Below, one piece after another: positions 16,305 through 37,598 of a DNA stretch of 64,000 bases (positions are counted from its first letter, which is position 1; each line of letters opens with the position of its first letter). The translations under genes and the position numbers were made by a program. The notes beneath the pieces are model-generated. The model was not told where the DNA came from and made no database searches. It saw only the letters and a list, made by a program, of their open reading frames with translations. Source of the stretch: Bacilli bacterium (GTDB lineage Bacteria; Bacillota_I; Bacilli_A; RFN20; CAG-288); NCBI GenBank assembly GCA_900770925.1, contig CAAGLY010000002.1:18942-82941 (forward strand), given 5' to 3'.

Positions 16305-16401
16305 GATACGGGACGGGACTTGGTATACCAACAAAAGACGAACTGGCAGTCCTTAGTAAGGAGAAAGTACAAATGAGGACTGGCTGTATGTACTTATTTT
16401 T

Positions 16402-18042
16402 ATGCGGAACAAATTCAAATGTTTGATGACAATCTTAAGTGCTTTGGCACTGACTGGATGTGGTGTTAAGACGAGTGAATCAGGAAATATTCCTTCTGAA
16501 ACTGGTAAGAAGTCGTCTGTTTCTCAGCAAGCCGGAAAAATAAACGGAATTACGATGAGGAAGGAAGGAGTCGCCTGTGAAACTGTGTCGGTTGGCGCAG
16601 GATACACGGTTCAGCTTTCTGCTGAGGTCAATGCAACCGGAAATCCGGATAAAACCATTTCTTGGGAAACTAGTAATCCAAAGATTGCCACAGTTGATAC
16701 GAACGGACTTGTTACTGGTGTTGATTTCGGTGATTGTGAGATTAGTGCAAAAATCGGAAAAATCAAAGCAAGCTGCAAAGTCTCTGTCACTGACTATCAT
16801 CGTTCCTCTTCGGTGTTTGAAAATATTACCCGTTTAGCAAACAATCCTTACAATACACAGAACGGGCTTGCTGATTATGTGATTGATTGCTCATCCGAGG
16901 ACTATGTTACGGTTAAGTTTGATCGTGGTGCTACGGATAAGTGGGCATCTATTATCTTAAATTATGATGCCAAAATCTATGACTATACTGATTTTCAGTT
17001 AGGAGTTGAGCTGGTTAGCGGACATCTTTCAACGTTCGGTGTTGAGTTCCAGGGAACGAATGAATTCAAATCATTTTATAACGTTTCCTTGGAACAGGGA
17101 AAAGAAGCCGTTTTGAATGTTCCGCTTACCGATTATATTATCGAAGATTCCGGCAGCTGGTCTTCTATTGCTTTAGAATTCAATAATCCGACAGATGATA
17201 ATGATTCTAATCGCAAGGAAAACGAAAATGTTGAATTACGAATCAAGAAAGCAAAGCTTGTGAAAGGAGAAAAGAAAGCGCCTGGAAAAGTCGAAGGCCT
17301 GAAATTCGATGAGACTCTTCAGAAGCTCTCTTTCAAGAAAGTCATTGGGGCAACAGAGTATAAGGTCGAGGCGACAAAAGATGGTTCCCCCCTTGAATTA
17401 GATACTGCTTATACCCGCTTTGCTTCTATTACAGAGCCGATGACCGATATCCGTACGGTTTTCACTCCGAAGAAGACAAAAGATATCAATCAGAACTTCG
17501 CTGAAATCAAAGGTGTCTATACTTTCCAGATTACAGCAAAGAATAGTGTCGGATTTGGAACGCCTAGCGAGAAAATCACTGTCAATATTGATCAGAATGC
17601 TAGTGAGGAGAAGTCCGGATTCACTTGCATTGGATTTACCGATGGAACGATTAGTCCGAATCAATACAATGGAGATAAGGAATCGTATTCTACAGAAAAG
17701 AAGGAAGACGGATATCATCTGAAGTTTACAGGAAGTGCTGGCCATGAGTGGGATTCCTTTACTGCGAACTTTGGTACAGCCCAGGCGTTTAAACACTTCA
17801 AAATGAAGTTCTCCGTTCTTAAGGGAAATCCTGTAGAGGCAGTTGCCGAACTTGCCGGTGCTACCGACGAAGGAAAACAGCAGCATTCCTTTACCATCAC
17901 CGAAGGGGAAAATGTTGTGGCGTTTGACATTACCTGCGATACCACAAAAGGCTATGGTCGTTTAAGCCTTCAGTTTGGTCATTCCGGTGCCGCCTGCGGA
18001 GAAACCGAAATTCTTCTTACCGATTTAGAAATTACGGAATAA
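16402..18042 (+). CDS. surface lipoprotein with a Big_2 (bacterial Ig-like) domain
   Basis: The signal peptide carries a lipobox (ALALTGC). The Big_2 signature reads VSVGAGYTVQLSAEVNATGNPDKTISWETSNPKIATVDTNGLVTGV. The start context is unusual (see the uORF finding). Confidence 0.6.
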   Translation: MRNKFKCLMTILSALALTGCGVKTSESGNIPSETGKKSSVSQQAGKINGITMRKEGVACETVSVGAGYTVQLSAEVNATGNPDKTISWETSNPKIATVDTNGLVTGVDFGDCEISAKIGKIKASCKVSVTDYHRSSSVFENITRLANNPYNTQNGLADYVIDCSSEDYVTVKFDRGATDKWASIILNYDAKIYDYTDFQLGVELVSGHLSTFGVEFQGTNEFKSFYNVSLEQGKEAVLNVPLTDYIIEDSGSWSSIALEFNNPTDDNDSNRKENENVELRIKKAKLVKGEKKAPGKVEGLKFDETLQKLSFKKVIGATEYKVEATKDGSPLELDTAYTRFASITEPMTDIRTVFTPKKTKDINQNFAEIKGVYTFQITAKNSVGFGTPSEKITVNIDQNASEEKSGFTCIGFTDGTISPNQYNGDKESYSTEKKEDGYHLKFTGSAGHEWDSFTANFGTAQAFKHFKMKFSVLKGNPVEAVAELAGATDEGKQQHSFTITEGENVVAFDITCDTTKGYGRLSLQFGHSGAACGETEILLTDLEITE

Positions 18043-18061
18043 TTTCCAGAAAGGAGACAAA

Positions 18062-18096
18062 AGGCTGCTAATTCTTTAGCAGCCTCTTTATTTCAT
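18062..18096 (+). terminator. Rho-independent terminator-like hairpin directly abutting the next start codon
   Basis: The stem is AGGCTGCTAA-TTCT-TTAGCAGCCT, a perfect 10 bp, followed by CTTTATTTCATT. The ATG is at 18098. Confidence 0.6.
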
Positions 18097-18097
18097 T

Positions 18098-19306
18098 ATG
18101 AATGCTAAAGAATATATTATTTCTCATCTTCATGATACGCTACGAAAAAAGGGACGTCAGGAAGGCGCTAGGAGCCTGCCGTATTCCTACACCGCTCCTT
18201 GTGCAAATGGATTGTTTGATGATCTGTACTATTGGGATACTTATTTTTTTAACAAGGCACTTCTTCTCGAAGGAGAAGAACAGAGGGTTCGTGATAATAT
18301 TCTTGACTTCTGTTTCCTTATTGAACAATACGGCTTTATTCCGAATTCGGCTAATTTCGGAATGGTGAATCGCACTCAGGTGCCCTATTTTATCTTGATG
18401 TGCGATGAGTATCTTTCAAAGTATCCAAGCGTAGCAAGGCAGAAGAGGCTTTTCCCTTACAGGAAAAAAGAATATGAGTTCTGGATGGCAAATCGTCTCC
18501 TTCCCTGTGGGCTAAACCATTATTCCGGACATGCCGATGACCATTTTCTTGAAGAATTTTCTAAGGTATTTACGCAGCGGGTTCATACCCTCAGCCATCC
18601 GGAATTTGATTTGAAAACAATCGGGCATAATGCAATTGCGGAATGTGAATCAGGATGGGATTTCTCTTCCCGTTTTGATCAGCGCTGTGTTGATTTCGCC
18701 CCTGTTGATTTAAATGCCCTTCTTTATATCAATGAAGGAATCCTTGCCAAATACTCCAATAGTCCAACAGAAAAGGAGCAATACCTTTTTGCACAGAAAA
18801 AACGCAAGGAAAACAGGATGAAGTATAGGTATAAGGATGGTCTTTTCTTTGATTATGATACAAAGAATAAAAAGACATCCTCTTTCTATCATTGTGGAAT
18901 GTTCTATCCGTTCCTTGCTGACTTTACCTTTGATAAAAATGCTTTTGAGAAACTATGTTCTAAGTTGATCTATCCAAAAGGAATTGCAGCTTCAGAGAAG
19001 ATAGACAATACTCACAATTACCAGTGGGGATTTCCGAACAGGTGGCCGAATCTTGCAATGGTTTCTTTCTTTTCCTGCCTAAACGTCAAGGAAAACGAGC
19101 TTGCTAAGGAAATTGGACTGAAATACCTTTCGACTGTAGAAGAAGCCTATTTGGAAACAGGATGCCTTTGGGAAAAATATGATGTTCTCTTTGGCGGAAA
19201 GAGCCGGAAAAACGAATATCAGGATACGGAGAGGATGGGATGGACGGCAGGTACCTATCTTGTTTTGGAGAGCGAATGCCGTAGAAGAGGGTGGATTCAT
19301 GAATAA
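18098..19306 (+). CDS. glycoside hydrolase, trehalase-like (GH37 or clan GH-G fold)
   Basis: One motif resembles trehalase signature 1 (GLFDDLYYWDTYFF, compared with GGRFxExYYWDSY). Another resembles signature 2 (YQWGFPNRWPNL, compared with QWDYPNAWPP). Confidence 0.5.
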   Translation: MNAKEYIISHLHDTLRKKGRQEGARSLPYSYTAPCANGLFDDLYYWDTYFFNKALLLEGEEQRVRDNILDFCFLIEQYGFIPNSANFGMVNRTQVPYFILMCDEYLSKYPSVARQKRLFPYRKKEYEFWMANRLLPCGLNHYSGHADDHFLEEFSKVFTQRVHTLSHPEFDLKTIGHNAIAECESGWDFSSRFDQRCVDFAPVDLNALLYINEGILAKYSNSPTEKEQYLFAQKKRKENRMKYRYKDGLFFDYDTKNKKTSSFYHCGMFYPFLADFTFDKNAFEKLCSKLIYPKGIAASEKIDNTHNYQWGFPNRWPNLAMVSFFSCLNVKENELAKEIGLKYLSTVEEAYLETGCLWEKYDVLFGGKSRKNEYQDTERMGWTAGTYLVLESECRRRGWIHE

Positions 19307-21245
19307 AAGGGAACATTTGACTTCTTTTGGTTCCTGGGATATTAAGGATAGCAAAGGCAATTTATATCGCTGCAGTGATGGACCGAACGGAATTCGTGAG
19401 GTCATAAAAGAACAGAACGGATATCAGATTGCTAAGGAAAGCGATGCCTATCCCACCTTATCTTTTCTGGGAAACACATTTGATGAGGAAATTGTCGAAA
19501 AAATCGGATATTGTCTTGGCCAGGAATGCCGGGAAAAAGGGATTTCTCTCCTTTTAGGACCGGGAGTCAATATTAAACGGACTCCTCTTTGCGGTAGAAA
19601 CTTTGAATATTTTTCTGAAGATCCTTATCTTTCCGGCCGGCTCGGGTATTCCTATATCCAGGGAGTACAAAGACATCATGTCGGTTGTGCTTTGAAGCAT
19701 TTTTCCTGTAATAATCGGGAGTATGATCGCTTTTTTCAGAGCAGCGAAGTGGATGAACGGACACTTCACGAAATCTACTTCCGTCCGTTTGAAATCGCTC
19801 TGAAAGCCCATCCCTATGCTTTGATGTGTTCCTATAATCCGGTGAACGGAATTCTTGCCAGTGAGAATTCCTATCTTCTGAAAGAGGTTCTTCGACAGGA
19901 GTTTTCCTACCAAGGACTTATTATTTCGGATTGGGGAGCTGTCCGAAATCGGGCGATTTCCCTGAAAGCAGGAATTGATGTAGCCTTTCCTTACAATCCT
20001 TCTTTTTCTAGTCAGCTGGAAGAAGGATATCGGGATGGATATCTTTCAGACAAGGAGATTGACGCTTCCTTGAATCGGATTGATCATTTTGCAGATCAAG
20101 TAAACAGGAATGAACCGACAGAAAAAGCGAATCAATATCAGGTCATGAAAGAAGCATGTCTTTCTGGAATCGTTCTTCTGAAGAACGAGGAAGGGATTCT
20201 CCCTTTATCTCCGCTGAAGAAGAATATTCTTCTTTTGGGGTCCATACTGGATCAACCGATTCTTGGTGGCGGCGGTTCTTCTCAGATTACTCCCAAGAAT
20301 GAAGTAAAAAGCTTATTGAATGCTCTAACAGATATTGATCAAAGCCATAACTATTCCTACGAACAGGCTTATAGGATGCGTTATTCCTTGGTAACTCCTT
20401 TTGGATTTAAGATTGCTAGGGAAAAGGCGTATTCTGCTGATGTGGTTATCCTTGGAGTGGCAGATACGATTCTCGAGGAAAAAGAAGAGACCGATCGGAC
20501 AAGCTTATCTCTTGACCAGGCCTATCTTGATCTGATTGATAAAGTAGCAAGAATCAATCCGAATATTGTCTTAGTCGTTCAGTCCGGGTCTGCGGTTGAT
20601 CTTTCCGTTGTTCAGAGCAAAGTAAAAGCAATCCTTCAAATTGGCTATGCTGGTGAAAGGATTTATCCGGCACTTGCTGAAATTCTTCTTGGCAAAGTAT
20701 CACCGAGCGGACGTCTAGCGGAATCCTATCCTCTTTCTTTAGAAGACACCTACACGAAAGGAAAGGTTGGGAATTCCTTCAGGGAACGTTATACAGATGG
20801 AGTATTTGTCGGATATCGTTATTATTGCAGTGAAGAAATTCCGGTTCTGTATCCGTTTGGATACGGACTTTCCTATCTAAATGTCTGTTATTTATCTCTT
20901 GAGGTAAATGATAACTATCAAGTCAAAGTGCTAATCCGTAATGATTCGGATAGGCCAGGAAAAGAAGTTGTCCAGCTTTATATCCGGGAAGTCTTTCCGT
21001 CTGTTTCCCGCCCTATTCGTGAATTGAAGGCCTTTAAAAAAGTAAGTATACTTCCACATGAAACAAAAGAAGTCGTCTTTTCTCTCTCTAAAGAAGATTT
21101 CATGTACTATTCTGTGAATCTTCATCGTTATTATCTTGAACCAGGAAGTTATGAGATTCAGATTGGCCGCAATGCCAACGATATTGTTCTGAGTAAGAAA
21201 ATCAATATTCAGGTAGCAAAATGGGAAGGATATTCAAGATATTAA
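19299..21245 (+). CDS. glycoside hydrolase family 3 (beta-glucosidase or beta-N-acetylhexosaminidase)
   Basis: The N-terminal GH3 signature reads LLGPGVNIKRTPLCGRNFEYFSEDPYL. The catalytic-Asp region reads GLIISDWGAV. An RBS precedes the ATG at 19299. The track start at 19179 is upstream of that RBS. Confidence 0.8.
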   Translation: MNKREHLTSFGSWDIKDSKGNLYRCSDGPNGIREVIKEQNGYQIAKESDAYPTLSFLGNTFDEEIVEKIGYCLGQECREKGISLLLGPGVNIKRTPLCGRNFEYFSEDPYLSGRLGYSYIQGVQRHHVGCALKHFSCNNREYDRFFQSSEVDERTLHEIYFRPFEIALKAHPYALMCSYNPVNGILASENSYLLKEVLRQEFSYQGLIISDWGAVRNRAISLKAGIDVAFPYNPSFSSQLEEGYRDGYLSDKEIDASLNRIDHFADQVNRNEPTEKANQYQVMKEACLSGIVLLKNEEGILPLSPLKKNILLLGSILDQPILGGGGSSQITPKNEVKSLLNALTDIDQSHNYSYEQAYRMRYSLVTPFGFKIAREKAYSADVVILGVADTILEEKEETDRTSLSLDQAYLDLIDKVARINPNIVLVVQSGSAVDLSVVQSKVKAILQIGYAGERIYPALAEILLGKVSPSGRLAESYPLSLEDTYTKGKVGNSFRERYTDGVFVGYRYYCSEEIPVLYPFGYGLSYLNVCYLSLEVNDNYQVKVLIRNDSDRPGKEVVQLYIREVFPSVSRPIRELKAFKKVSILPHETKEVVFSLSKEDFMYYSVNLHRYYLEPGSYEIQIGRNANDIVLSKKINIQVAKWEGYSRY

Positions 21246-21246
21246 T

Positions 21247-22749
21247 ATGACAATTGAGATACAGATTCGGCAAGGAGAATCCTATTATGGCCTGGCCTGT
21301 AATGAAGGCGTTCGTTTTCCGTTGACTCAATCCAGTAGCTATGAATTTGATCTGAGAACCTATCATAGCGGAAATCAGGCGAGTTCTGTTCTTCTTTCGA
21401 CAAGGGGAAAGTATATCTATAGTGACTATCCCTTCCATATCCTTGTGAAAAAAGGAATTAGGACACTCGAAGGAAAGGATATTCTGGTTAAGGAAAATGG
21501 AAAGACGCTGAAGTCCGCTCACCAAGGTCTGATCAGAGACTTTTTCCGTTCCGACCATCGCATTCCAGATGAGAGAAGGTTCACCAGGATTCAATACAAT
21601 ACCTGGATTGAAAGGGGATGGGATTGCACGGAAGAAAAAGTTCTCCAGTATGCATCATCGATTCTTGAACACGGCTATCCTGCCGGAATTCTTAGGATTG
21701 ATGACTGTTGGTGCAAGGACTATGGAGAATGGGACTTTGATCCTAGTAAGTTCAAAAACCCGGGAAAGAGGGTGGAGAAGCTTCATCAGAGGGGTTTCCT
21801 TGTCATGCTTTGGTGCTGTCCGTTTGTTTCTCCGGACAGTGCTCGGTTCCGTTCGCAGGAATCTCTCTTTTTCCGGAATAAAAAAGGAGACACCGGTATC
21901 TCTCATTGGTGGAATGGCTATTCTGCTGTCTATGACAGGACTCTTCCCGAAGCAAGAAGTGCGTTTCTAGCGTCGCTTTCTTTCCTTAAGGAAAAATACG
22001 GAATTGATGGCTTTAAGCTTGATGCCGGAGATCCGGAATATTATCCAGATGATTTTGAATTCCATGGAATCGAACGTTCAAGGCAGGCTAAGGAATATGC
22101 GGCTCTTGGTGAGAAATTTCCTCTTTCCGAACTCCGTGTTGCTTTTAATAATAATCTGAAAGGAGTTGCCCATCGTCTGAGAGATAAAAACCATTCCTGG
22201 AACGAGGATGGCATCAACACATTGATACCTGATGGAATCAGGGAAGGCTTGCTTGGTTATCCTTACTTCTGTCCAGATAGGATCGGAGGAGGTATGCTTT
22301 TAGATTTTACCAAACCGGATTTTGTGTTTTCACAGGACCTTTTTGTCCGCTATGCCCAGGCCGCTGCATATAGGCCTAGGAGGCAGTTTTCTCTTATGCC
22401 TTATAAAAAATTGGATGAAGAACATTTAGAGGCAGTAAAAAAAGCCGTAGATATCCATCTTAAAAATTCCGGCCTTATCGTTTCTTTAGCTAAACAGTCT
22501 AAAGAGACAGGAGAACCGATTGTAAAGCCTTTGAATTATTTTTACCCAGGTTCAGCATATGATTCGATTAAAGACGAATTCGTTTTGACGGAGGACTTTC
22601 TTGTTGCGCCAATGGTGCAGGAAGGAACAAGCAGAGAAGTGGTGATTCCCGATGGAATCTGGGTGGATGAAACCGGAAAACAATATTCGAAAGGAACATA
22701 TCAGATTGAAGTTCCGCTTAATCGTATCCCTGTTTTCCGTAAAAGGTAA
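21247..22749 (+). CDS. clan GH-D glycosidase (GH27/GH36-like alpha-galactosidase or alpha-N-acetylgalactosaminidase family)
   Basis: The GH27-type signature reads GILRIDDCWCKDYGEWDFDPSKF. The downstream motif GIDGFKLDAGD can be compared with GVDYLKYDNC. Confidence 0.5.
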   Translation: MTIEIQIRQGESYYGLACNEGVRFPLTQSSSYEFDLRTYHSGNQASSVLLSTRGKYIYSDYPFHILVKKGIRTLEGKDILVKENGKTLKSAHQGLIRDFFRSDHRIPDERRFTRIQYNTWIERGWDCTEEKVLQYASSILEHGYPAGILRIDDCWCKDYGEWDFDPSKFKNPGKRVEKLHQRGFLVMLWCCPFVSPDSARFRSQESLFFRNKKGDTGISHWWNGYSAVYDRTLPEARSAFLASLSFLKEKYGIDGFKLDAGDPEYYPDDFEFHGIERSRQAKEYAALGEKFPLSELRVAFNNNLKGVAHRLRDKNHSWNEDGINTLIPDGIREGLLGYPYFCPDRIGGGMLLDFTKPDFVFSQDLFVRYAQAAAYRPRRQFSLMPYKKLDEEHLEAVKKAVDIHLKNSGLIVSLAKQSKETGEPIVKPLNYFYPGSAYDSIKDEFVLTEDFLVAPMVQEGTSREVVIPDGIWVDETGKQYSKGTYQIEVPLNRIPVFRKR

Positions 22750-22827
22750 AAAAAGAGTATTGACCTATGTTTTTCACAATTTCATGTATGTAACCGGTTT
22801 CCTATAATGGAAATGGTGAGGTATGCC

Positions 22828-23919
22828 ATGGAAAATTATGAAAAGCTGACCATCGGAAAAAGATATCTGACAGGAAGGATTAATCTTGGCCTTGTTTTTC
22901 TTTTTACTCTTTTCCTCTATTTAGTGGGAGGAATCGGGATTGGAAAGAAAATGGTGGGCTTTGATCAGGAAGTCCTACACCAGAAGAAACTTACCGGCGA
23001 AATCTATAATCATAGGTATGATACCCACCTTTATTGCAAAGATAAAGATGGTAATGCAAGGGAAGTGGATGAAATTTTCAAAAACTATGTTCAGAACCAG
23101 CTTTCTGGGGAAATGAAAGATGCAGATGGCAGTTATCTTGATCCGCTTGCTTATTATTACATCAGCTTTGATAAATCTAGGTCAGTCAATGAATTCAATC
23201 ATCAGATTCTTCTTGTTGGAAACGAAGATTCGTTCTATGAAGCAAAGGATAGGGAAAGCCTAGGATATCTCAAACTTGAAGTGAAGGAAAAGCTGTCTTC
23301 TTATTTTGATGGAAAGATGACGGATTCGAACAAGAAAACATATAATTCATTTTCTGATTTTTTCTCGAAAGCCTGGTTCAATGCCGTAGAGAAAGAAAAG
23401 AAAGGACCAATCATCACTTCATTAGTGAATCAGTTCAATCAATCGGTCCTACTGCAGGGATTGGGTTTAGGAATACCGGCACTCTGCTCTTATCTGATTG
23501 TAAGGATTCTCTTTGAATTTATCCTGCCTCTTTCCTGCAAGCAGCGGACAAGGGGGAACCTTCTTCTTCATTCTGACATCCGAAGAAAAAGCGGCAATTT
23601 TCGCCCAGCTTGGTGGCAGACACTGATTCGGTTTCTTGTCAATCTTATTCTTGATTGCTATATTCCTTTCTATGTTCTTGCCCTTGTTACTGGTGTAGAG
23701 AACGCATGCAAGGTTCCTTTGCTGAAGATTGGTTCTTTCTCTCTCCCGCTAGCAACCGTAGGATTTACCCTTACGATTTTCGCTTTAATCAATCTTTTTG
23801 TCCTCTCTTTTAGTAAATCCCATCAATCTTATGCTGATCTGATAACGGCGACTTATCACGCAAAGCGTGTCGAAAATCAAACGGAGGAAAATACAGATGG
23901 CAGACGTAAAGCTCATTAA
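22828..23919 (+). CDS. hypothetical polytopic membrane protein
   Basis: There are several TM helices. An RBS (GGTGAGG) precedes the ATG at 22828. The ATGs at 22807 and 22813 sit inside or next to a TATAAT at 22801-22806. The 3' end overlaps the following ATPase gene. Confidence 0.4.
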   Translation: MENYEKLTIGKRYLTGRINLGLVFLFTLFLYLVGGIGIGKKMVGFDQEVLHQKKLTGEIYNHRYDTHLYCKDKDGNAREVDEIFKNYVQNQLSGEMKDADGSYLDPLAYYYISFDKSRSVNEFNHQILLVGNEDSFYEAKDRESLGYLKLEVKEKLSSYFDGKMTDSNKKTYNSFSDFFSKAWFNAVEKEKKGPIITSLVNQFNQSVLLQGLGLGIPALCSYLIVRILFEFILPLSCKQRTRGNLLLHSDIRRKSGNFRPAWWQTLIRFLVNLILDCYIPFYVLALVTGVENACKVPLLKIGSFSLPLATVGFTLTIFALINLFVLSFSKSHQSYADLITATYHAKRVENQTEENTDGRRKAH

Positions 23920-25435
23920 TGTCAATAAGATCTACGATAATAAGGTGCAGGCTGTCCATGACTTCAACTTGGATATTAAAGACAAGGAGTTCACGGTCTT
24001 TGTCGGTCCGTCCGGATGCGGAAAATCAACAACACTTCGAAGGATTGCCGGACTTGAGGAAATCACGACGGGTGAATTATATATTGACGGTGTTTTCTGT
24101 AATTATGTACCTCCAAAAGACAGAGGGATTGCAATGGTTTTCCAAACCTATGCCCTTTATCCCCATAGGACTGTCTTTGATAACAGGGCTTTTTCTCTGA
24201 AAATCAAGAAATTTCCTTTCCCGGTTTTTGAAGAGGAAGATAAAAACCGTCTTAAGGAAATCAACAGAAAGCTTGATGGGCTCTATGATGTTTTAGATAA
24301 AAAACTTCAGAAAAAGAAAAAACTGGAAGATATTAAGAACGAATATAACGAATATGTCCGTTTCGAAAAAAGCAAGAACAAGGAACCTAATCCATCCAAG
24401 AGGGATAAGTATGAGAAAAAACTTGCGGGCTTTTCCCAATTAGTTGAGGAATGCAATCACCTTCAGGATCAGATTGATCTTGTTCAGGATGAATTCAAAC
24501 AGGCTAAGACCAATGCAAAAATCTGCACCGCCATTGATAAGAAAAGAATCGCTCAGCTTTCCAAAGAGATTAGCAAGCTGAAAAAGAACAATAGCCCAGA
24601 GGATATTGTTTCCAGGAAAGAAGAACAGTTAAAAGAAGCACAGACGATTCCTAGTCCGGTATATAAACTCAAACATAGGAACAAAAATGAAATCAAGGAA
24701 CGGATTCATCAGGCCGCAAAGATCCTTGATATCGAGAATTATCTTGGACGAAAACCACGGGAACTTTCTGGCGGTCAGCGGCAACGTGTTGCCTTAGGAC
24801 GTGCAATTGTCCGCAATGCTAAAGTCTTCCTGATGGATGAACCTCTTTCCAATCTTGATGCAAAGCTCCGTGTTTCCAGGCGAAGCGAAATCATTAAGCT
24901 GCATAAGAAAATAAATGCGACGACGATTTATGTCACCCATGATCAGACAGAAGCAAGGACAAGGGCAGATAAAATCGTGGTCAGGAAAGACGGCTATATC
25001 CAGCAGGTCGGAACTCCAAAGGAAATCTATTCTCATCCGGTGAACAAATTTGTTGCCGGTTTTATCGGAGCTCCTGCAAGGAATTTTATCGAAGTTCTTT
25101 ATCAGGATGGAAAAATCATCCATGATGGTGGTGAAGAACAAGTTGATGCAGAAAGGATAGAAGCTTTAAAGGCTTATAACGGCAAGAAAGTCATCTTAGG
25201 TATTCGTCCGGAAGATATTCAGATTTCTTCGGACAAAGGAAGCTATCCGATCTCTATCGATGTTTCAGAACTTCTTGGCAGTGAACTTCTGATTCATTTC
25301 TCTTTCTGTGGAGCAAATCTGACAGCAAAGTGTGAAGCGGACTCCATTTCCCCCGAAGAGAAGACAGCATGGATAACTTTCAAACAGAATAAAATCCATT
25401 TCTTCGATAAAGAAACGGAAAAGACAATTCTTTAG
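23897..25435 (+). CDS. sugar ABC transporter ATP-binding protein (MsmK/MalK-like) with an insertion of about 150 aa in the helical subdomain
   Basis: The RBS is GGAGG, followed by ATG at 23897. Motifs present are Walker A (GPSGCGKST), the Q-loop, the LSGGQRQRVALGRA signature, Walker B (FLMDEPLSNLD) and a C-terminal MalK-like regulatory domain. Confidence 0.8.
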   Translation: MADVKLINVNKIYDNKVQAVHDFNLDIKDKEFTVFVGPSGCGKSTTLRRIAGLEEITTGELYIDGVFCNYVPPKDRGIAMVFQTYALYPHRTVFDNRAFSLKIKKFPFPVFEEEDKNRLKEINRKLDGLYDVLDKKLQKKKKLEDIKNEYNEYVRFEKSKNKEPNPSKRDKYEKKLAGFSQLVEECNHLQDQIDLVQDEFKQAKTNAKICTAIDKKRIAQLSKEISKLKKNNSPEDIVSRKEEQLKEAQTIPSPVYKLKHRNKNEIKERIHQAAKILDIENYLGRKPRELSGGQRQRVALGRAIVRNAKVFLMDEPLSNLDAKLRVSRRSEIIKLHKKINATTIYVTHDQTEARTRADKIVVRKDGYIQQVGTPKEIYSHPVNKFVAGFIGAPARNFIEVLYQDGKIIHDGGEEQVDAERIEALKAYNGKKVILGIRPEDIQISSDKGSYPISIDVSELLGSELLIHFSFCGANLTAKCEADSISPEEKTAWITFKQNKIHFFDKETEKTIL

Positions 25436-29113: not shown

Positions 29114-29149
29114 TCTATCTATTTCTTTAATATAAGGAGCGCCGAACAA

Positions 29150-30268
29150 TGAAAGAACTTTCTGATCTGAATCGTTTACACGATACTCTTTCGGAACAGG
29201 TCCTTTCTTTGCAAGGCTGCCTTTGACTTCCCTAGACTGGAAGAAGAGAAGGCAGCCTTAAGCAAGCAAAGCGAGGATCCGTCGTTCTGGAAAAATCCAA
29301 GCTTAGCTGCCAGTGTTAACCGTAAATTAGCCGATATCGAAAATAAAATCAATTCGATTGAATCCTTTAAGTCCCGCCTTTCCTCGATTCAGGAGTCTTT
29401 AGATTTCCTGAAAGAGGATAGGGATAAGGATATCTTTGAGGATGCTGATCAGTCCCTGAATACCCTGAATAAGGACTTTGACGTTTTTTCTAAGACAATC
29501 TTCTATTCTGGCCCTTATGATGAGGCAAACGCTATTCTTGAATTTCATCCCGGAGCGGGCGGAACAGAAGCTCATGATTGGGCACAGAGGCTTTTAAGAA
29601 GGTATGAACGTTTCTGTGAATCGAATGGCTATCATTATAAGATTGTCGATAGGATTGAGGGAGAAGAGGCCGGTATTTCCTCTGCTACAAGGGTTGTGGA
29701 AGGAAAGAGGGCGTATGGAAACCTTCGCTCTGAGAACGGAGTCCATCGCTTAGTCCGTATCTCGCCTTTTGATGCTTCCGGTTCCCGGCATACTTCTTTT
29801 GCTTCCGTTTCCGTCATTCCGGAAATCGATGATTCCATCGATATCGAAATCCGTCCGGAAGATTTAAGAATCGATACCTATCATTCTTCCGGTGCAGGCG
29901 GACAGAATGTCAATAAGACGGAGTCTGCTGTCCGTATTACCCATCTTCCTACCGGCATTGTCGTATCCTGCCAGATTGAGCGGGATCAGCTTGCCAATAA
30001 GGAAACCTGTAGGGAAATGCTCCGCTCGAAGCTGTTCCAGATCGAACTGAAGAAAAAACAGGATGAACTGAATAAGATTTCTGGACAGAAGAAGGATATT
30101 TCCTTCTCTAGCCAGATCCGTTCGTATGTCTTCTGCCCCTATACCTTAGTTAAAGATCATCGGGATGACTATTCGGAAGTCTCTGTCCAGTCCGTCATGG
30201 ACGGAAAGATAAACGGATTCATCGATGCTTATCTGAAATGGGATTTCAGGAGAAATCATCAGAAATGA
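29150..30268 (+). CDS. prfB: peptide chain release factor 2, carrying the programmed +1 frameshift site CTT TGA C at 29221-29227. The 5' frame is anomalous (see finding).
   Basis: The post-shift frame encodes DFPRLEEEKAALSKQSEDPSFW...SGAGGQNVNKTESAVRITHLPTGIVV, giving the GGQ motif and an SPF-type region. The shift site and the upstream AAGG match the classical RF2 autoregulatory site. Synteny with secA is conserved. Confidence 0.85.
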
Positions 30269-31405: not shown

Positions 31406-31807
31406 TTAGCGGATGAAACTTGGTTCTAGGATAACGTCTTCACCGGTTGTTTTAAAAACGAGACCGAATGAAAGAGTAGTTGTCTTGCTGCTGAGCTTTA
31501 TATTCTCTACGCATCCTTTTTTGAACAGAGTCTTATCTGTCTGGTTCTTGATTGAAAGGTAAGGGCCAATGAGCTTTTTATCCTCATTAGAAGCCGAAAG
31601 CCAGGTAAGGGAAGAATCATCATAGCTAAGCTCCGTTCCGTAAGGATAGGAAACAAGGGTTTCCTTTAATAACTGATCTTTGATCAGCCCTTTTCCTTCT
31701 TGGTAAGCGTATTGCCGGAAAGAGAGGATAGATTCACTTTTGTTTTGATGACAGCCGGTGAGTGAAAGAAGAACGGGTAGGAGTAAAAATATTTTCTTTT
31801 TCATCAT
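31406..31807 (-). CDS. lipoprotein, function unknown
   Basis: The signal peptide carries a lipobox (MMKKKIFLLLPVLLSLTGC). Confidence 0.5.
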   Translation of the reverse strand: MMKKKIFLLLPVLLSLTGCHQNKSESILSFRQYAYQEGKGLIKDQLLKETLVSYPYGTELSYDDSSLTWLSASNEDKKLIGPYLSIKNQTDKTLFKKGCVENIKLSSKTTTLSFGLVFKTTGEDVILEPSFIR

Positions 31808-32193
31808 CAGAATGAATCGAAATAGAAGACCATGCCTCTATTGAGAACGATTTCCTTTTTTCCGTTTTCGTCTAGACTGTTTTCAAGATTTGGTGAGTCA
31901 AAATCAAGATAGAAGGGCGTGCGGTAGAAATAGCATCCCCTGGCTGTTCCCTGGATATTCCGGACCAGGTCATCATCATAGCGAAGTACATAATCTCTTT
32001 GGAAGAGATGGTATTCTTGATATTTCCTTTCACCGGAAAAACAGATTGTGCCGTCTTCTTTGGTTTCCCTTGTATACTGCTTGAAGTAAACGGCCACATA
32101 ATCGGCTGTTGTTTTAATGTTAGAACTTTCGTTACATCCGACTAGTAGAAAAGAAATTGTGGCGAAGAATAATGATTTATTCATGTTAAACAC
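31807..32193 (-). CDS. lipoprotein, function unknown
   Basis: The signal peptide carries a lipobox (MFNMNKSLFFATISFLLVGC). The gene is co-oriented with the preceding lipoprotein gene and directly abuts it. Confidence 0.5.
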   Translation of the reverse strand: MFNMNKSLFFATISFLLVGCNESSNIKTTADYVAVYFKQYTRETKEDGTICFSGERKYQEYHLFQRDYVLRYDDDLVRNIQGTARGCYFYRTPFYLDFDSPNLENSLDENGKKEIVLNRGMVFYFDSF

Positions 32194-32355: not shown

Positions 32356-32895
32356 TTATTTTTCTATCCGATTTTTGATTAGGTAAGTGAAGAGGGCACT
32401 TTGAGTCTTAGCATCCGGAAGCTCATCATTTCTTACCCTATCTAAAAGCTGACCCCTTGGAATAAAGGAACAGGTGATTCTTTCTACGTTATCCAGATGG
32501 GTTTCTTCTTTGCGGAGCTTTCTTGCCAAAAAGAGATGCCTGACTTCGTCGGAGGAACCGACAGAAGGATAGATGACACCTAAGTCATTCCATTCTTCTC
32601 CGACATATCCGGTTTCCTCTTTCAGTTCCCGTTTCGCGGCATCAAGCCAAGACTCTCCTTCTTCCTTGTCTCCGGCTGGAATCTCAAGAATATCTTTGCA
32701 GTAAGGATAACGGAAGTTTGATTCAATCAGCACTTCTTCTTTTTCGTTGATTGCTAAAACACAGCTGCATCCATGGTAATGGATCAGCTGCCATGGAACA
32801 ATTGTTCCGTCTTCCCTTTCTGTCTTCGTGTTTTTGATTTCAAATCCGATTCCATGGAAGATACTCTCTTCCCTGATTCGTTTTCTTTTGTTCAT
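32356..32895 (-). CDS. NUDIX hydrolase (ADP-ribose pyrophosphatase-like)
   Basis: The Nudix box reads GDKEEGESWLDAAKRELKEETGY. Confidence 0.75.
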   Translation of the reverse strand: MNKRKRIREESIFHGIGFEIKNTKTEREDGTIVPWQLIHYHGCSCVLAINEKEEVLIESNFRYPYCKDILEIPAGDKEEGESWLDAAKRELKEETGYVGEEWNDLGVIYPSVGSSDEVRHLFLARKLRKEETHLDNVERITCSFIPRGQLLDRVRNDELPDAKTQSALFTYLIKNRIEK

Positions 32896-32896
32896 T

Positions 32897-33439
32897 TTAT
32901 CTGTCTAAGAGCAGATACTGTAAGATACCGGCAAGAGTCTTTCCGTCACGGATTTTATCTTCTTTGACCCTTTGCTTCACTTCTTCAAGTGGTACGAAAC
33001 GGTATTTGAGGTCTTCTCCGGCATCTAAATGCTGTCCTTTGAAGGTCAGACCTTTTGCTAAATAGATTTCGATGACTTCATCCGTATAAGCAACACTAGG
33101 ATAGAAAGTGCCGAGCTTCTTCCACTCTTTAGCCTGATATCCGGTTTCTTCCTCGAATTCCCGTTTTGCGGTTGTCAGCCCGTCTTCGCTTGGTTCAGCC
33201 TTTCCGGCAGGAAGCTCGATCCTGACATCGTCATAAGGATAACGGTACTGCTCTTCTAAAATGATTTCATTCTTCTCATTGATAGCAAGGATAGCAGAAG
33301 CATGGCAGTGACGGATGACTTCCCGGTGTGTCTTTCTTCCGCTAGGAAGAGTGACATCATCGACATAGACATCAAGTATATGCCCTTTATAGATTTCCTT
33401 GGATGCCGTTTTCTTTTCTCTTACTTCATCGATGTTCAT
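32897..33439 (-). CDS. NUDIX hydrolase (ADP-ribose pyrophosphatase-like), a tandem paralog
   Basis: The Nudix box reads GKAEPSEDGLTTAKREFEEETGY. It lies 1 nt upstream of the previous NUDIX gene. Confidence 0.75.
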   Translation of the reverse strand: MNIDEVREKKTASKEIYKGHILDVYVDDVTLPSGRKTHREVIRHCHASAILAINEKNEIILEEQYRYPYDDVRIELPAGKAEPSEDGLTTAKREFEEETGYQAKEWKKLGTFYPSVAYTDEVIEIYLAKGLTFKGQHLDAGEDLKYRFVPLEEVKQRVKEDKIRDGKTLAGILQYLLLDR

Positions 33440-33499
33440 AATATCTACCCCCGTGTTTTTCTATCTTTATTATATACTTCTGAACCCTTTCACAGAAAA

Positions 33500-33536
33500 A
33501 AGGAAGCAAGGGCATATCCCTGACTTCCTTTTGTTT
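33500..33536 (-). terminator. Rho-independent terminator for the metalloprotease-lipoprotein operon
   Basis: On the minus strand the stem AAAAGGAAG...CTTCCTTTT has an inner GGG/CCC pairing and is followed by TTTTTTCTG. A TATAAT for the NUDIX genes follows. Confidence 0.5.
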
Positions 33537-33540
33537 CGGA

Positions 33541-34221
33541 TTATCGGCTGACTGTTATATCCTTTCCGCTGTTTTCAAATCTGAATTTGTAAGTAATCGA
33601 GTCGGAACATAGGACAGACTGGTTTCCAAAGAAAGGGGCAGCGAAGTTTAAGGTCTCGTTTTCTTTCGGGGCAAGACAGGTGATAGTTAATTTAGCTTCG
33701 TTTCCGTCTCCGAGAATCGAATAGCAGGATGTGAAATCAATCTGGAAATCTAGGCAGACATCATAAACCCGGTAGAATACCTTATTAACACTCAAGGAAA
33801 AGACATGATAGGAAGACTCTTCTATTTCCGGAAGTGAAACTGCTTTGTATCCGAAGTCTTTTGATGAATCCGGAAAACCGAATTGACAATAAAGATAGGG
33901 AACTACAGATAGATAAAGGGAAGCATATTGACTGAAATTCAGGCCGACTCCTATCGTAAAAGTGATCCTCGGTCCGGAAACGGCCTGTTTTCCTTCGGTG
34001 TCCCTATCGATAATTAGATGCGCATCATTCACGGGCACACCAATTGGAATGTCTCCCGTGTCATCTGGTTCTCTGTTTTCTGATCTGAATGTGTTTTTCT
34101 GGGTCAGTTCCTCTGCTGTGTAAGGAAATCCGTTATCATCATATAGAAATTCTGCTGTTGATTGCGAACAACCGATAAGGAGAGGGAAAAGCCTGATTAG
34201 TGCAATTGATTTTCTGTTCAT
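33541..34221 (-). CDS. lipoprotein, function unknown
   Basis: The internal start is MNRKSIALIRLFPLLIGC (lipobox). The track ORF extends to 34311 but overlaps the upstream gene. A start at about 34221 gives a 4-nt ATGA-type overlap. Confidence 0.5.
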   Translation of the reverse strand: MNRKSIALIRLFPLLIGCSQSTAEFLYDDNGFPYTAEELTQKNTFRSENREPDDTGDIPIGVPVNDAHLIIDRDTEGKQAVSGPRITFTIGVGLNFSQYASLYLSVVPYLYCQFGFPDSSKDFGYKAVSLPEIEESSYHVFSLSVNKVFYRVYDVCLDFQIDFTSCYSILGDGNEAKLTITCLAPKENETLNFAAPFFGNQSVLCSDSITYKFRFENSGKDITVSR

Positions 34222-34898
34222 AATCTTTCTCCTTTGCTTGTTTGTGGCATAAGGCAATTTAATAGCGCTTCTGGTCTTTTGACTTCGAAAACGCTGTTGT
34301 GCACTGACCATTTCAATTTGATTTTGTTTGATACAATTGATCTTTCTTCAAAGCTATTTTGTTTAGAGTAGAACTGATTGCTTTGCGTATCAAACATTGT
34401 TAATCCAATAGAGATAGAACCGGAACTACCGCCCATCTTCTTCAGATAATAGTCGAAATCAATATCGATTCTGAAAGATCGATGATAGGTTAGATAATAT
34501 GTATCTGTGGTATAGTCCTCGGAATAATCCATCGCGTACTCACTTTGATTAATAGCAGGAAGTTCCTTTGAAAAGGAGTATTCATCCATGTCACCATAAA
34601 TGGCGATGACCGGCATATATTGCTTCCAGTCCTTTATTTTATCTTTGAATAGGCCGACATATATTTCTAATGGATAAATGTGGCTGCTGTCCACCTTTGT
34701 TTCTGGAAGCCGGAAATCGATTCTTGCCGGATTTTCAAAGGCATACTGCTTTCTTTCATTGACACTATAGGTATTGGAGAAATAATAGGTAAAGGTGTTT
34801 TCCTTTGCGATTTGGCTGCTTTTTGATTGACAGCCTGAAAGCAATAATAAGCAACAATTAAAAAGAATCCTAGGTAATTTCATATGATGTCCTTTCAT
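34218..34898 (-). CDS. lipoprotein, function unknown
   Basis: The signal peptide carries a lipobox (MKLPRILFNCCLLLLSGC). The start is probably at about 34883. It overlaps the metalloprotease stop. Confidence 0.5.
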   Translation of the reverse strand: MKGHHMKLPRILFNCCLLLLSGCQSKSSQIAKENTFTYYFSNTYSVNERKQYAFENPARIDFRLPETKVDSSHIYPLEIYVGLFKDKIKDWKQYMPVIAIYGDMDEYSFSKELPAINQSEYAMDYSEDYTTDTYYLTYHRSFRIDIDFDYYLKKMGGSSGSISIGLTMFDTQSNQFYSKQNSFEERSIVSNKIKLKWSVHNSVFEVKRPEALLNCLMPQTSKGERL

Positions 34899-37000
34899 CT
34901 ATTCAGTTTTGCAAAAGGACCATAGACTGGACCTAATTCTGTCTGTACACCCGTTGTCGATTTGTAGTAAGCAGTAATTGAAACGTAGTAATCTGGATGA
35001 ACCTGAATGTAATTTGCCTCATTGTTAGTCAATTTATAGTTCAGGTTGTCGCCCGAAGTTGTCGGGTATATCGGATTGCCGCTGTTTAGCATTTTGATTG
35101 GATTTCCTCCGGCATGATCGTATATTCCTATATAAAACTTATTGTTTCTGATAAAACCATTGTTAACTAGATGACCTTGATACATGTTTTGAGCTTTTTC
35201 TATATCTTTCCATTTAATAAGATGGGATTGTCCAGATGTGGTTAATTGTGCCTTACAGGGACATAAATGGTAGCATTCTGCTAACTCTGAAATCTCTTGA
35301 AAACCAAATTGCATTTGAAGCTCCCAAAGGTATTCGTAAAAATAATCTGGTGCTAAATCTTGCCCAATCATCGAAGTAAGTACTTTCCTTAATGAACTTT
35401 CACTGATTGAAAACACATCTTTTCCGATTTTGCTGGAATTCCATAGATGATAAAGGAATCTAATGATAGCCAATTCACATCCATCTCCGCCTTGTATATC
35501 TTCTAGATAATTGATATAGCCTGAATTTTCATCTTCCGGCATATATTCATCGAACGAGAATGTCCCATCTTTGTCTATCCCATAATTACTTGCATAATAG
35601 CGATTATCTCCTATGCTTAAGTAAGTTTCTTTTTTTAATTCATCAGGGAAAGACTCTTGAGCCATGGTTGCCCAAAACGTTGGCCAGCCTTCCGCCCATG
35701 CCAGTCGTAATCCGTCCTGCTTTGCTTTTTCTTCATTCAGACGGGGCACTGACTCGGGGGAATCGCTAATTGTATATTTGCTAAAATTCAATAGATAACT
35801 ACAATCATCGTTTGATGCGTAATGTGTGCCGCCAATTGAATTTGTAAAACGCCTGCAATGTTCAAGGTGATGACCGTATTCATGACCAAAGACATCCCAA
35901 GATTCGTAACTCTTTAAAGATGTATTATTATTTGGTGAATTACTTATATAGATAGTATTCTTGTTGTATAATGCGGTTTTTGTTTGAGAAGATGGGAATT
36001 GAACTGAGCATTGTTTTAGAGTTATAAACGAATTTGTTGGGAGAATGGTTTGTGCTGCATGTGTAGCATAATAATACAAGGATTGATAGATTTCTGTCAT
36101 CTGACCAAAATCGGAACTTGGAGTAAAACAATAATTTAAAGTCTTTTCTGTATTACCACTGACTAAAGTAATTGGAATTTCAATAGCATATTGTTGCCCT
36201 TTGCTATCAATTGAGTTTATATATTTAGAAGAAAGACTTAGAGAAATCGAGTATTTTCGGTTTTCGATTTCATTCCAAATTGAATCTAGATCATTTGTGT
36301 TATTCCCAATTGACGGAAGCCCCGATCCATTTGAAAGTGAAAATTCAAAAAGCGCAGTTCCCGTCTTATCTGTATTTTTTGTAATTGATTTTCCAGAATC
36401 CGTGGTTAGAGTAACTGTTACTCCAGTTAAAGGAAATTCTGTTCCTTTGGAATCTTTCCAGGAAAAAGTGCTTGAGAGACTCTTGCTTTTTATAGGTGAA
36501 ATAGGACCGATGATTATTGGTTTAAAGCCGGCTACTGTGTTTGTTCCGCTAAATAATATTTTCGATGGTATACCAATAGCTTTTTTTGCGGTGTCTAACG
36601 ATAACGAAGAACAAGAAACTCTTCCCAAACTATCTCTGTAAAAATAGAAAGTGCTAAGAGTACTATTATCGTTTCGAAGGATAGATAAAGTTGCTTCTGC
36701 TAGTTCTATTGTTGCATCGATGAATAAAAACTCGTTTGTGGCTTTAAAACCTGTTATGGTTAGTCCTTTTGTGGAGTAATTAAATTTATCTGAATTCTTG
36801 ACACTTAGTTTCAAAGATACCTGACTATTCGGAAAAATAGTTTCAAAATCTTCTATTCTGTCGTTGGAATAATATCTGATAGTCGAAGATGATGCGAAAT
36901 GTCCAAAACTGGCAGTGCTGCTATTCTTTTTCTGTGAGCCTGATAGTACAAGACCTAAAGAAGATAGGATGAAAGGAACCCTCAATATGTTTTTTATCAT
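34895..37000 (-). CDS. secreted putative zinc metallopeptidase (HEXXH)
   Basis: There is an N-terminal signal peptide without a lipobox Cys. Residues 1-370 are Ser/Thr-rich beta-rich repeats. The motif WDVFGHEYGHHLEH has the HEXXH arrangement, with Glu three residues after the second His. The RBS is GGAGG. Confidence 0.5.
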   Translation of the reverse strand: MIKNILRVPFILSSLGLVLSGSQKKNSSTASFGHFASSSTIRYYSNDRIEDFETIFPNSQVSLKLSVKNSDKFNYSTKGLTITGFKATNEFLFIDATIELAEATLSILRNDNSTLSTFYFYRDSLGRVSCSSLSLDTAKKAIGIPSKILFSGTNTVAGFKPIIIGPISPIKSKSLSSTFSWKDSKGTEFPLTGVTVTLTTDSGKSITKNTDKTGTALFEFSLSNGSGLPSIGNNTNDLDSIWNEIENRKYSISLSLSSKYINSIDSKGQQYAIEIPITLVSGNTEKTLNYCFTPSSDFGQMTEIYQSLYYYATHAAQTILPTNSFITLKQCSVQFPSSQTKTALYNKNTIYISNSPNNNTSLKSYESWDVFGHEYGHHLEHCRRFTNSIGGTHYASNDDCSYLLNFSKYTISDSPESVPRLNEEKAKQDGLRLAWAEGWPTFWATMAQESFPDELKKETYLSIGDNRYYASNYGIDKDGTFSFDEYMPEDENSGYINYLEDIQGGDGCELAIIRFLYHLWNSSKIGKDVFSISESSLRKVLTSMIGQDLAPDYFYEYLWELQMQFGFQEISELAECYHLCPCKAQLTTSGQSHLIKWKDIEKAQNMYQGHLVNNGFIRNNKFYIGIYDHAGGNPIKMLNSGNPIYPTTSGDNLNYKLTNNEANYIQVHPDYYVSITAYYKSTTGVQTELGPVYGPFAKLNR

Positions 37001-37598
37001 ATAAACCTCCGCTGTTTTGTTTCATTATAAAGCTATCCAATTTTACTAATTTGTTCCACCTCGTGATTCCTAGGACATTCGTATAGTAAAAACATCCTTA
37101 ATTATCGAGAAAATCAGAAAAAATTAGTAATTATTCATTGAAAAGAAAGCGTTTTCCTATAAACTTGCTGAGCTTTGCACATCACCTTGAACCATGTTTC
37201 TTTCCAATCTTCTTGATAACAGCTGCTTTCTTAAGGGATAACTGTGCGCGTAATTGCTACCCATTGCCATGTGCAGAAGAAGAACAGTGTTACGCAAAAG
37301 GATGTTGGTAGCCTTTTTTCACAATTTCGGCCACCCTTTCGCCGAATATTAATAGAGCGACTTGACGTATCGTTAGCAACTCCCCGTCCCTTTTTTGCTG
37401 CTGAACTCTGGCTTGGCTTTCGCGCTGAAGTCGCAATCCTTTAAGAAATCCTCGTAACATTCCTTGCTATGTCTCCTGAGACTGAAAATTATCCTTATTC
37501 GTTGTATCGGGAGGACTGCTATGTTTGCAGAAGGTCTAAATTATGAACTAGCTTTTTTCCTTTTTCCTTTCCCTTTTCTCAACTATAATGGAACGGAT

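Follow-up and report, generated by a model that had tools for sequence, protein, structure and literature searches.

A predicted thermolysin-fold zinc peptidase of a new family encoded together with two lipoproteins in a Bacilli bacterium

The 64-kb stretch of contig CAAGLY010000002.1 of a Bacilli bacterium analyzed here (assembly GCA_900770925.1, positions 18,942 to 82,941; hereafter, the window, numbered from its first letter) contains, on the minus strand, three consecutive genes that encode a large exported protein with a HEXXH motif, denoted below as the protease, and two small lipoproteins, LipA and LipB (Table 1). The protease is best described as a representative of a new family in clan MA(E), characterized by an operon that also encodes lipoprotein partners. 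An earlier note on this DNA, made from the sequence alone, had already recognized a 701-amino acid (aa) exported protein followed by two lipoprotein genes, and the open reading frame (ORF) list indeed includes the three corresponding ORFs, at 34895-37000 (701 aa), 34218-34898 (226 aa) and 33541-34311 (256 aa from the first ATG). Translation of the third ORF from the internal ATG at 34221 yields a 226-aa protein with the N-terminus MNRKSIALIRLFPLLIGC.

The lipA and lipB genes are joined by an ATGA start/stop overlap (-4 nt) at 34218-34221. At the protease-lipA junction, the ATG at 34898 overlaps the TGA of the protease gene and is not preceded by a Shine-Dalgarno sequence, and an alternative ATG at 34883 (MKLPRILFNCCLLLLSG-C; MKLPRIL...) is located 6 nt after AAAGGA. 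The latter ATG is also the start called independently on an identical public contig (221 aa), and it agrees with the 10-18-nt spacers bearing Shine-Dalgarno sequences that are found in all six homologous cassettes. Because the Shine-Dalgarno sequence, the independent start call and the spacers of the homologous cassettes all favor the ATG at 34883, this junction is probably an 11-nt spacer rather than a 4-nt overlap. Thus, of the two 4-nt overlaps claimed previously, only the one between lipA and lipB stands, and of the proposed lipoprotein lengths (226 and about 226 aa), that of LipB is retained, whereas LipA comprises 221 aa from the preferred start and 226 aa only from the ATG at 34898.

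Among the expression signals proposed in the note, the ribosome-binding site and the terminator were recovered, the terminator hairpin downstream of lipB being the sole terminator-like site in the region 33300-37500. The TATAAT hexamer is present as well, but no acceptable -35 element was found for it, and promoter-like sites identified by a consensus scan are not enriched in the region (17, compared to 12.7 +/- 4.6 in shuffled sequences), with no convincing sigma-70 promoter among them; a promoter of the protease operon is therefore plausible, not demonstrated. The protease, lipA and lipB very probably form one operon, which would run from a weak promoter through the ribosome-binding site and the three genes to the terminator.

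Table 1. Features of the protease-lipoprotein locus (positions in the window; aa numbering is that of the protease unless a lipoprotein is named)
Feature	Position	Strand	Basis
TATAAT, -10-like hexamer upstream of the protease gene	37024..37029	-	read from the sequence; weak evidence
Shine-Dalgarno sequence GGAGG, 5 nt before the protease ATG	37006..37010	-	sequence
Protease gene, 701 aa + TGA; predicted member of an unclassified thermolysin-fold gluzincin family	34895..37000	-	
Signal peptide, aa 1-22, MIKNILRVPFILSSLGLVLSGS; no lipobox Cys, signal peptidase I type cleavage predicted	36935..37000	-	sequence; cleavage inferred
N-terminal beta-sandwich domain, aa 52-155, variable across the family	36536..36847	-	model secondary structure
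Transthyretin/CnaB-like beta-sandwich, aa 172-220, conserved W181, D183, P190, G214	36341..36487	-	
Catalytic domain, about aa 235-580, predicted two-lobed thermolysin fold: mixed alpha/beta, then helical domain	35261..36298	-	
HEYGHH (H373 E374 ... H377 H378), predicted active-site helix 368-383, after invariant D369	35867..35884	-	alignment and model
H393, near-invariant loop His, past the active-site helix and ahead of the Glu helix	35822..35824	-	152/155 relatives
E437, motif LAWAEGWPTFWA, helix 423-450, proposed third zinc ligand	35690..35692	-	157/157 relatives
C-terminal beta-sandwich, aa 585-701, FN3/Ig-like, conserved W597	34898..35248	-	
lipA, 221-aa lipoprotein (226 aa from ATG 34898), lipobox LLSG-C	34218..34883	-	ORF, start choice
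lipB, 226-aa lipoprotein, lipobox LLIG-C18	33541..34221	-	ORF from ATG 34221
Intrinsic terminator, GC-containing hairpin followed by a U-run	33495..33537	-	-19.3 kcal/mol, z = -3.74 vs shuffles

An AlphaFold2 model of the protease, obtained from a 13-sequence alignment (mean predicted local distance difference test (pLDDT) 77.5; predicted template modeling score (pTM) 0.81), suggests a multi-domain organization in which the signal peptide would be followed by a disordered linker (aa 1-51 are disordered in the model), the variable beta-sandwich, the transthyretin-like sandwich, the catalytic domain and the C-terminal sandwich. Many distant relatives align to the protease only from about aa 170 on. 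The Ser/Thr-rich, beta-structured N-terminal half described in the note was borne out, with 26.7% Ser+Thr in aa 1-300 compared to 15.5% in the remainder of the protein and an all-beta prediction for this region. No FTP or PepSY propeptide was detected in the protease in the Pfam scan; the N-terminal region consists of predicted beta-sandwich domains instead. Because its signal peptide ends with LSGS and contains no lipobox Cys, the window protease is predicted to be exported and not lipidated. The orthologues P0006, P0008, P0009 and P0010 have an LLAC or LSSC lipobox at the same position. Thus, of the "surface protease" of the note, the protease call holds, whereas a surface location is uncertain for this copy, which lacks a lipobox.

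The HEYGH sequence is the only HEXXH within a long ORF in the entire window; it belongs to the motif WDVFGHEYGHHLEH at protease residues 368-381, with the codon of H373 at 35882-35884. Conservation was assessed in 158 representatives (at most 50% identity) aligned to the hidden Markov model (HMM) of the family. D369, H373, E374 and H377 are each invariant (156/156), as is E437 (157/157), and high conservation was observed also for H378 (150/156), H393 (152/155, or 98%), Q448 (154/157), Y345 (154/156), E509 (149/152) and Y468 (144/154). In a further sample of 62 family members, the active-site residues likewise do not vary. The family signature can be written as W-D-x-x-G-H-E-Y-G-H-H ... G-G-x-H ... 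A-W-x-E-G-W-x-T ... Q.

As in the gluzincins (clan MA(E)), H373, E374 and H377 map to a predicted active-site helix. In gluzincins, a Glu from a downstream 'glutamate helix' provides the third zinc ligand; here, the candidate, E437, within the AWxEGWxT motif, is located on the next long helix, 60 residues after H377 (38-66 residues between the second His and this Glu across the family). H393 is a candidate for a transition-state stabilizer or for an additional or alternative metal ligand. The Glu close to the HEXXH that was pointed out in the note, E380, is replaced with Gln in 105 of the 156 relatives and is therefore not the third ligand; the invariant E437 is the candidate instead. The observations that would have argued against a protease, namely, lack of a zincin fold in the predicted structure or location of the HEXXH in a non-conserved loop, were not made: the predicted fold is that of thermolysin and the HEXXH is present in all 156 relatives, so that the protease call stands.

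Scans of all three operon proteins against Pfam, NCBIfam and PADLOC yielded no significant match; a weak Reprolysin_2 match (E 0.062) was set aside because it extends no further than the HEXXH. Sequence searches of the Protein Data Bank (PDB), with both the single protein and the family profile, yielded no peptidase match, and the best profile match, to a restriction S subunit (E 0.009), falls on the variable N-terminal domain and was judged spurious. The failure to assign a family by eye is thus matched by the searches of Pfam, NCBIfam and PDB sequences, none of which claims the protease. Of the zincin families suggested for comparison, M60-like, M6 and M4, none matches by sequence, and only M4 matches by fold.

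Among 5.8 billion proteins, we identified 13 close homologues, none of which is named. An identical protease gene is present on a 151-kb metagenomic scaffold, and the source of a 55%-identical relative is a human gut metagenome. Searching 1.84 billion cluster representatives with a profile retrieved 909 clusters (50% identity) at E <= 1e-3, of which 204 at E <= 1e-30. These numbers point to a real family of considerable size, which is detected by none of the Pfam or NCBIfam models. When 62 diverse members of this family were compared to Pfam, no peptidase model was matched, and the matches obtained were to transthyretin-like or CarboxypepD_reg-like domains; long relatives carry BspA-type leucine-rich repeats (LRR), Listeria-Bacteroides repeats or PPC domains. 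The family is represented mostly in gut and rumen metagenome-assembled genomes (MAGs) of Bacilli or "Mollicutes". No description of a HEYGHH family was found in a literature search (motif HEYGHH; thermolysin-like, lipoprotein, Mollicutes); the gluzincin lipoprotein FP0506 of Flavobacterium is different and M48-like. Judging from conservation and the structural model, we predict with considerable confidence that the protease is a zinc peptidase of a new thermolysin-fold family.

No member of this family has a solved structure, and the hosts are for the most part uncultured gut and rumen bacteria, similar to Bacilli or "Mollicutes", the surface biology of which is almost unknown. A model for the HEYGHH family would name hundreds of anonymous metagenomic proteins and add a family to clan MA(E).

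Some contigs that encode family members are filed under implausible names (L010, L017 and L029, including 'Alistipes onderdonkii' and 'Escherichia coli' cleanbins; L numbers denote the loci compared here). The genes on these three contigs closely resemble those of Bacilli or Mollicutes MAGs, and the partner lipoprotein in L017 is 100% identical to that in L019, from an uncultured Mollicutes bacterium. These contigs are probably mis-binned.

LipA and LipB are predicted lipoproteins (Lgt/Lsp substrates) by their lipoboxes, LLSG-C and LLIG-C18, respectively, which were compared to the pattern [LVI][ASTVI][GAS]-C. LipB starts with a typical lipoprotein signal, MNRKSIALIRLFPLLIG-C, and the lipobox Cys is invariant in the LipA orthologues (6/6) and in all LipB orthologues. 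The LipA and LipB profiles without the signal peptides match each other over 139 columns (hhalign probability 96.4%, E 1.2e-9) and, for this reason, the two proteins are considered paralogues. They share an overall plan that includes a lipid anchor, a short motif, a disordered linker and an immunoglobulin (Ig)-like beta-sandwich. The motif, D-E-x-G-x-x-Y-x-x-x-x-L-x-K-x-N-x-F, follows the lipobox Cys in both families and in LipB includes D28, G31, Y34, L39, N43 and F45; LipA of the window clade retains only the second half of it. In the LipB model, the motif is followed by a disordered linker (aa 46-79) and the Ig-like sandwich (aa 85-225).

Seven loci share the gene order protease-LipA-LipB, namely, the window, L039, L001, L002, L003, L005 and L006, with orthologues of LipA and LipB identified at the matching positions by BLAST and alignments. 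The flanks of the cassette vary between these loci; L001, for instance, has glycolysis genes there, whereas L002 has genes for RNase J/Maf and NAD kinase. Two complete cassettes per genome were found in the MAGs UBA4682 and UBA784. Across cassette pairs, the mean identity is 41% for the protease, 29% for LipA and 31% for LipB, that is, the partners diverge faster than the enzyme. In a wider sample of the family, which consists of 32 non-redundant loci, mostly from gut and rumen MAGs labeled as Bacilli, Bacillales, Mollicutes, Erysipelotrichaceae or Acholeplasmatales, a same-strand lipoprotein gene is located directly downstream of the protease gene in 16 loci, compared to a 9% lipobox frequency for the remaining genes of these loci (binomial p 2.6e-9); at least two more cases, L003 and L036, escaped the lipobox regular expression. 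Conserved adjacency and co-inheritance, as expected of a protease-partner module, are thus observed in the seven loci, in the co-duplication and in the excess of downstream lipoproteins, and we consider it likely that the lipoproteins are functionally coupled to the protease. As to the "cognate lipoprotein partners" of the note, strict, repeated synteny speaks for partnership, whereas the proposed role of inhibitor, chaperone or substrate is not decided by it.

In the distant loci, the protease relatives comprise 650-900 aa, and the downstream lipoproteins, one or two per locus, about 200-290 aa. The latter have no Pfam match and show no profile-profile signal to LipA or LipB. They fall into several groups (L016-L019, L027, L029; L022, L031, L032, L036; L011, L021; L023, L025), with at most a weak link between two of these (hhalign probability 27%). 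L022 encodes two 72%-identical copies of the partner, about 2 kb apart. Members of the family from other phyla (Eisenbacteria, Phycisphaerales) have no such partners at their loci.

The overall explanation that we favor, at somewhat better than even confidence, is an operon for an exported zinc endopeptidase and lipoprotein partners that bind or restrain it. The first gene would encode a Sec-exported, multi-domain zinc endopeptidase in which H373 and H377 of HEYGH together with E437 bind zinc, E374 activates water as the general base, and H393, Y468 and E509 are candidate catalytic helpers. LipA and LipB would be held at the outer membrane face through the lipidated Cys, each extending its motif, flexible linker and Ig-like sandwich, and would bind the protease at the cell surface, restraining it or shielding the surface proteins of the producer, in an inhibitor- or immunity-like manner. 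The ORFs, operon signals, conservation, predicted fold, paralogy and synteny come from the analysis itself, whereas zinc binding by E437, proteolytic activity, the contact between the protease and the lipoproteins and the inhibitory direction of this contact are what we infer.

Several considerations favor an inhibitor or immunity role. Classical M4 enzymes use the FTP/PepSY propeptide as a chaperone and inhibitor, and this propeptide is missing here; the lipoproteins would stand in for it. Divergence faster than that of the enzyme, and turnover among distant lineages to unrelated families, both observed for the partners, are typical of immunity or inhibitor genes. A pure anchor role is disfavored because both partners are kept where the protease itself is lipid-anchored. 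Finally, there is a precedent that favors inhibition: the C-terminal domain of VgrG2b is a thermolysin-like gluzincin that is neutralized in a complex with the adjacent, envelope-targeted immunity protein PA0261, such proteins often being lipoproteins (PMC6899460).

Several points weigh against this explanation. The LipB model is of moderate quality (pLDDT 64), and the fold is a generic Ig-like sandwich, with no likeness to known protease inhibitors and no informative structural neighbor. The spacing between the second His and the Glu (38-66 residues) is unlike that in thermolysin, and E437 is a candidate third zinc ligand on the strength of its conservation and helix position. The N-terminal sandwich domains could themselves be a pro-domain or a latency device. 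Among the close orthologues of the protease, about half are predicted lipoproteins themselves, and such lipidated orthologues, together with the BspA LRR and Listeria-Bacteroides repeats, would fit at least equally well with a surface-retained enzyme served by adaptors as with one in need of an inhibitor. Thus, we regard an inhibitory or protective direction of the coupling as tentative and short of probable.

The main rival reading, which we judge unlikely, is substrate capture, whereby LipA and LipB would be surface receptors or adaptors that bind a protein of host or dietary origin (for example, immunoglobulin or mucin) and present it to the protease, similarly to the antibody-capturing and -cleaving MIB-MIP pairs of mycoplasmas. 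This possibility fits with Ig-like sandwiches on flexible tethers and with the provenance of the cassettes, from gut and rumen MAGs of host-associated, reduced Bacilli or 'Mollicutes', as well as with several cassettes per genome, the fast divergence of the partners and the fusion of long relatives to BspA LRR and Listeria-Bacteroides adhesin repeats. MIB-MIP itself combines a binder and a protease in tandem and occurs in multiple copies (PMC11213901, PMC8593674), but neither sequence nor fold likeness to MIB was detected, and MIP is a serine protease, not a zincin. Furthermore, library and structure searches detected no ligand-binding signature in LipA or LipB, the most conserved part of which is the membrane-proximal N-terminal motif rather than the sandwich surface.

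The next possibility, that the lipoproteins dock a non-lipidated enzyme to the membrane or aid its folding after export, without inhibition, appears quite improbable. Anchoring alone is insufficient because the proteases of L001, L002 and L006, which have a lipobox of their own, retain both partners, and two paralogous partners exceed the needs of an anchor. This reading draws its appeal from the window protease and its closest relative, both of which lack a lipobox Cys (LSGS and LTDS, respectively), from the missing FTP/PepSY intramolecular chaperone and from the tight translational coupling, which suggests stoichiometric co-production.

We find it hard to believe that there is no coupling at all, the genes merely encoding co-transcribed surface proteins, or that the HEXXH protein is a non-catalytic adhesin. 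The host genomes are rich in lipoproteins, with an unrelated lipoprotein pair only 1.3 kb away from the cassette, but about 160 divergent relatives share the full catalytic set without exception, the gene order is kept, amid different flanks, in seven loci and co-duplicated, and downstream lipoproteins exceed the background. Least credible is the reading in which LipA, LipB or other lipoproteins are substrates cleaved by the protease within the anchor-adjacent linker, with shedding of the sandwich domains: for all that a conserved motif and a disordered linker immediately follow the lipidated Cys and that the VgrG2b gluzincin appears to free lipoproteins from membranes (PMC6899460), the case is purely circumstantial, and the window-clade LipA gene is retained with half of the motif deleted.

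On one side, the cassette is flanked by secA, prfB, a YitT-family gene, two small lipoprotein genes and two NUDIX genes, and on the other side, by the divergently transcribed genes for a Ham1-family (dITP/XTP) pyrophosphatase, pth and mfd. Between 34000 and 38000, a segment that spans the cassette together with the 600-bp intergenic region upstream of it, the G+C fraction falls to 0.374-0.379, compared to about 0.43 in the flanks. The intergenic region itself (37001-37598) has no Rfam match and no convincing promoter; no tRNA gene was found in the window, and no Rfam family near the cassette. A tblastn search of plasmid and phage collections yielded no match to the cassette, which thus shows no sign of mobility.

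The two tandem NUDIX hydrolase genes (32356-33439, minus strand; 180 and 179 aa) adjoin the cassette. NUDIX genes adjoin the 55%-identical cassette of L039 as well, but there they flank its other end and are inverted, so that a local rearrangement took place in the vicinity of the cassette. The two small lipoprotein genes (31406-32193, minus strand), 1.3 kb downstream of the cassette, are arranged end-to-end, sharing base 31807, and encode proteins of 128 aa (GTG start, LVG-C lipobox) and 133 aa (LTG-C lipobox) with no family match. BLAST hints of kinship between these proteins and LipA or LipB came from the signal peptides, and the hhalign probability for the mature sequences is below 1%.

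Further away, a carbohydrate-utilization locus at 8114-25435 (plus strand) encompasses genes for a His_kinase and an AraC-type response regulator, an ABC (ATP-binding cassette) permease, two 550-552-aa proteins without a Pfam match, a Big_2 surface protein, a trehalase-like protein, GH3, GH31 and a MalK-type ATPase. At 58657-58756 (plus strand), there is a purine riboswitch (RF00167, 51.6 bits, E 7e-6), located just 5' of the genes for a nucleoside ABC substrate-binding protein of the Bmp/PnrA type (58836-60179) and an ABC ATPase (60232-61800). The prfB gene, for release factor 2 (29149-30268, plus strand), has a classical +1 programmed frameshift: a 25-codon ORF ends with ...LQGCL-TGA, after which the +1 frame is open over 29225-30268 and encodes the PCRF and RF-1 domains. 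Because the frameshift occurs at TGA, UGA serves as a stop codon here, so that the genetic code is 11 and not 4, the code of mycoplasmas.

Among the known peptidases, the protease is closest in fold to family M4 (thermolysin, Bacillus cereus neutral protease, aureolysin, pseudolysin LasB) and to the M36 fungalysins, with which it shares the predicted two-lobed fold, the HEXXH helix and a Glu, here the candidate ligand E437, on the next long helix. Like the protease, thermolysin has an Asp at position -4 relative to the first His (D-x-x-x-H-E-x-x-H). In thermolysin, however, the Glu ligand lies 20 residues after the second His, within the NExxSD motif, whereas here the candidate Glu is 60 residues away (38-66 in the family), within AWxEGWxT. 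Identity in the structural alignment is about 11%, with no detectable sequence similarity: Peptidase_M4 (PF01447) and Peptidase_M4_C (PF02868) are unmatched at E <= 1 in the protease and at E <= 1e-3 in the 62 relatives, and M36 is likewise unmatched. Furthermore, in contrast to M4, the protease lacks the FTP/PepSY propeptide, has extra transthyretin-like and FN3-like sandwiches, and belongs to a family with an extra conserved His after the motif (HEYGHH; H378), the near-invariant H393 and downstream lipoprotein genes. By predicted fold and probable chemistry, the protease thus resembles an M4/M36 gluzincin, but given the lack of a sequence match and of the propeptide and the different Glu spacing and motif, it does not appear to be a member of M4.

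Nor does the protease belong to the M60-like, M1 or metzincin groups. Unlike M60-like/enhancin and ZmpB-type glycopeptidases and the M1 aminopeptidases, the protease has no corresponding Pfam match and no GxMEN motif, and there is no Glu 8-28 residues after its HEXXH, where Peptidase_M60 and M1 (HEXXH-X18-E) have theirs. The metzincins are characterized by HEXXHXXGXXH/D and a Met-turn, whereas the protease reads HEYGHHLEHCR, with no Gly at +3 and no His/Asp at +6 after the second His.

With respect to gene organization, the locus resembles the effector-immunity pairs of type VI secretion systems (T6SS), the VgrG2b C-terminal domain with PA0261 and Tpe1 with Tpi1, in which a thermolysin-like gluzincin gene adjoins the gene for a small cognate envelope-targeted protein, often a lipoprotein, that binds and neutralizes the gluzincin, this juxtaposition being invariable in the T6SS pairs (PMC6899460). 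The T6SS pairs differ in that they come from Gram-negative bacteria, have one immunity gene rather than two paralogues and deliver the effector on the T6SS spike, whereas the protease here carries a Sec signal peptide; no sequence relationship was detected, and an antibacterial role of the present family would be hypothetical. The second parallel is MIB-MIP of Mycoplasma. MIP is a serine protease and MIB is large and unrelated to the Ig-like lipoproteins of about 220 aa described here, and, in contrast to mycoplasmas, the organism reads UGA as stop; what is shared is the tandem arrangement of genes for a surface binder and a protease, in several paralogous copies per genome, within a host-associated, genome-reduced lineage of Bacilli.

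Pairing of the protease with diverging lipoproteins offers a tractable case for the control of extracellular proteases in bacteria with little or no cell wall, and could reveal a protease-immunity or protease-adaptor logic relevant to colonization, turnover of immunoglobulin A (IgA) and mucin, and interbacterial competition in the gut. Generalizing further, and more speculatively than for any inhibitory role of LipA and LipB, HEYGHH...AWxEGW proteins and their fast-evolving lipoproteins might constitute a widespread effector-plus-partner surface system of wall-less or reduced gut Bacilli, either Tpe-Tpi-like or MIB-MIP-like, with the DExGxxYxxxxLxKxNxF motif involved in docking. If so, a Sec-exported antagonistic protease with lipoprotein immunity would be the counterpart of Tpe-Tpi in the Gram-positive lineage or, alternatively, a capture-and-cleave device for host proteins, such as secretory IgA, would be the metalloprotease counterpart of MIB-MIP.

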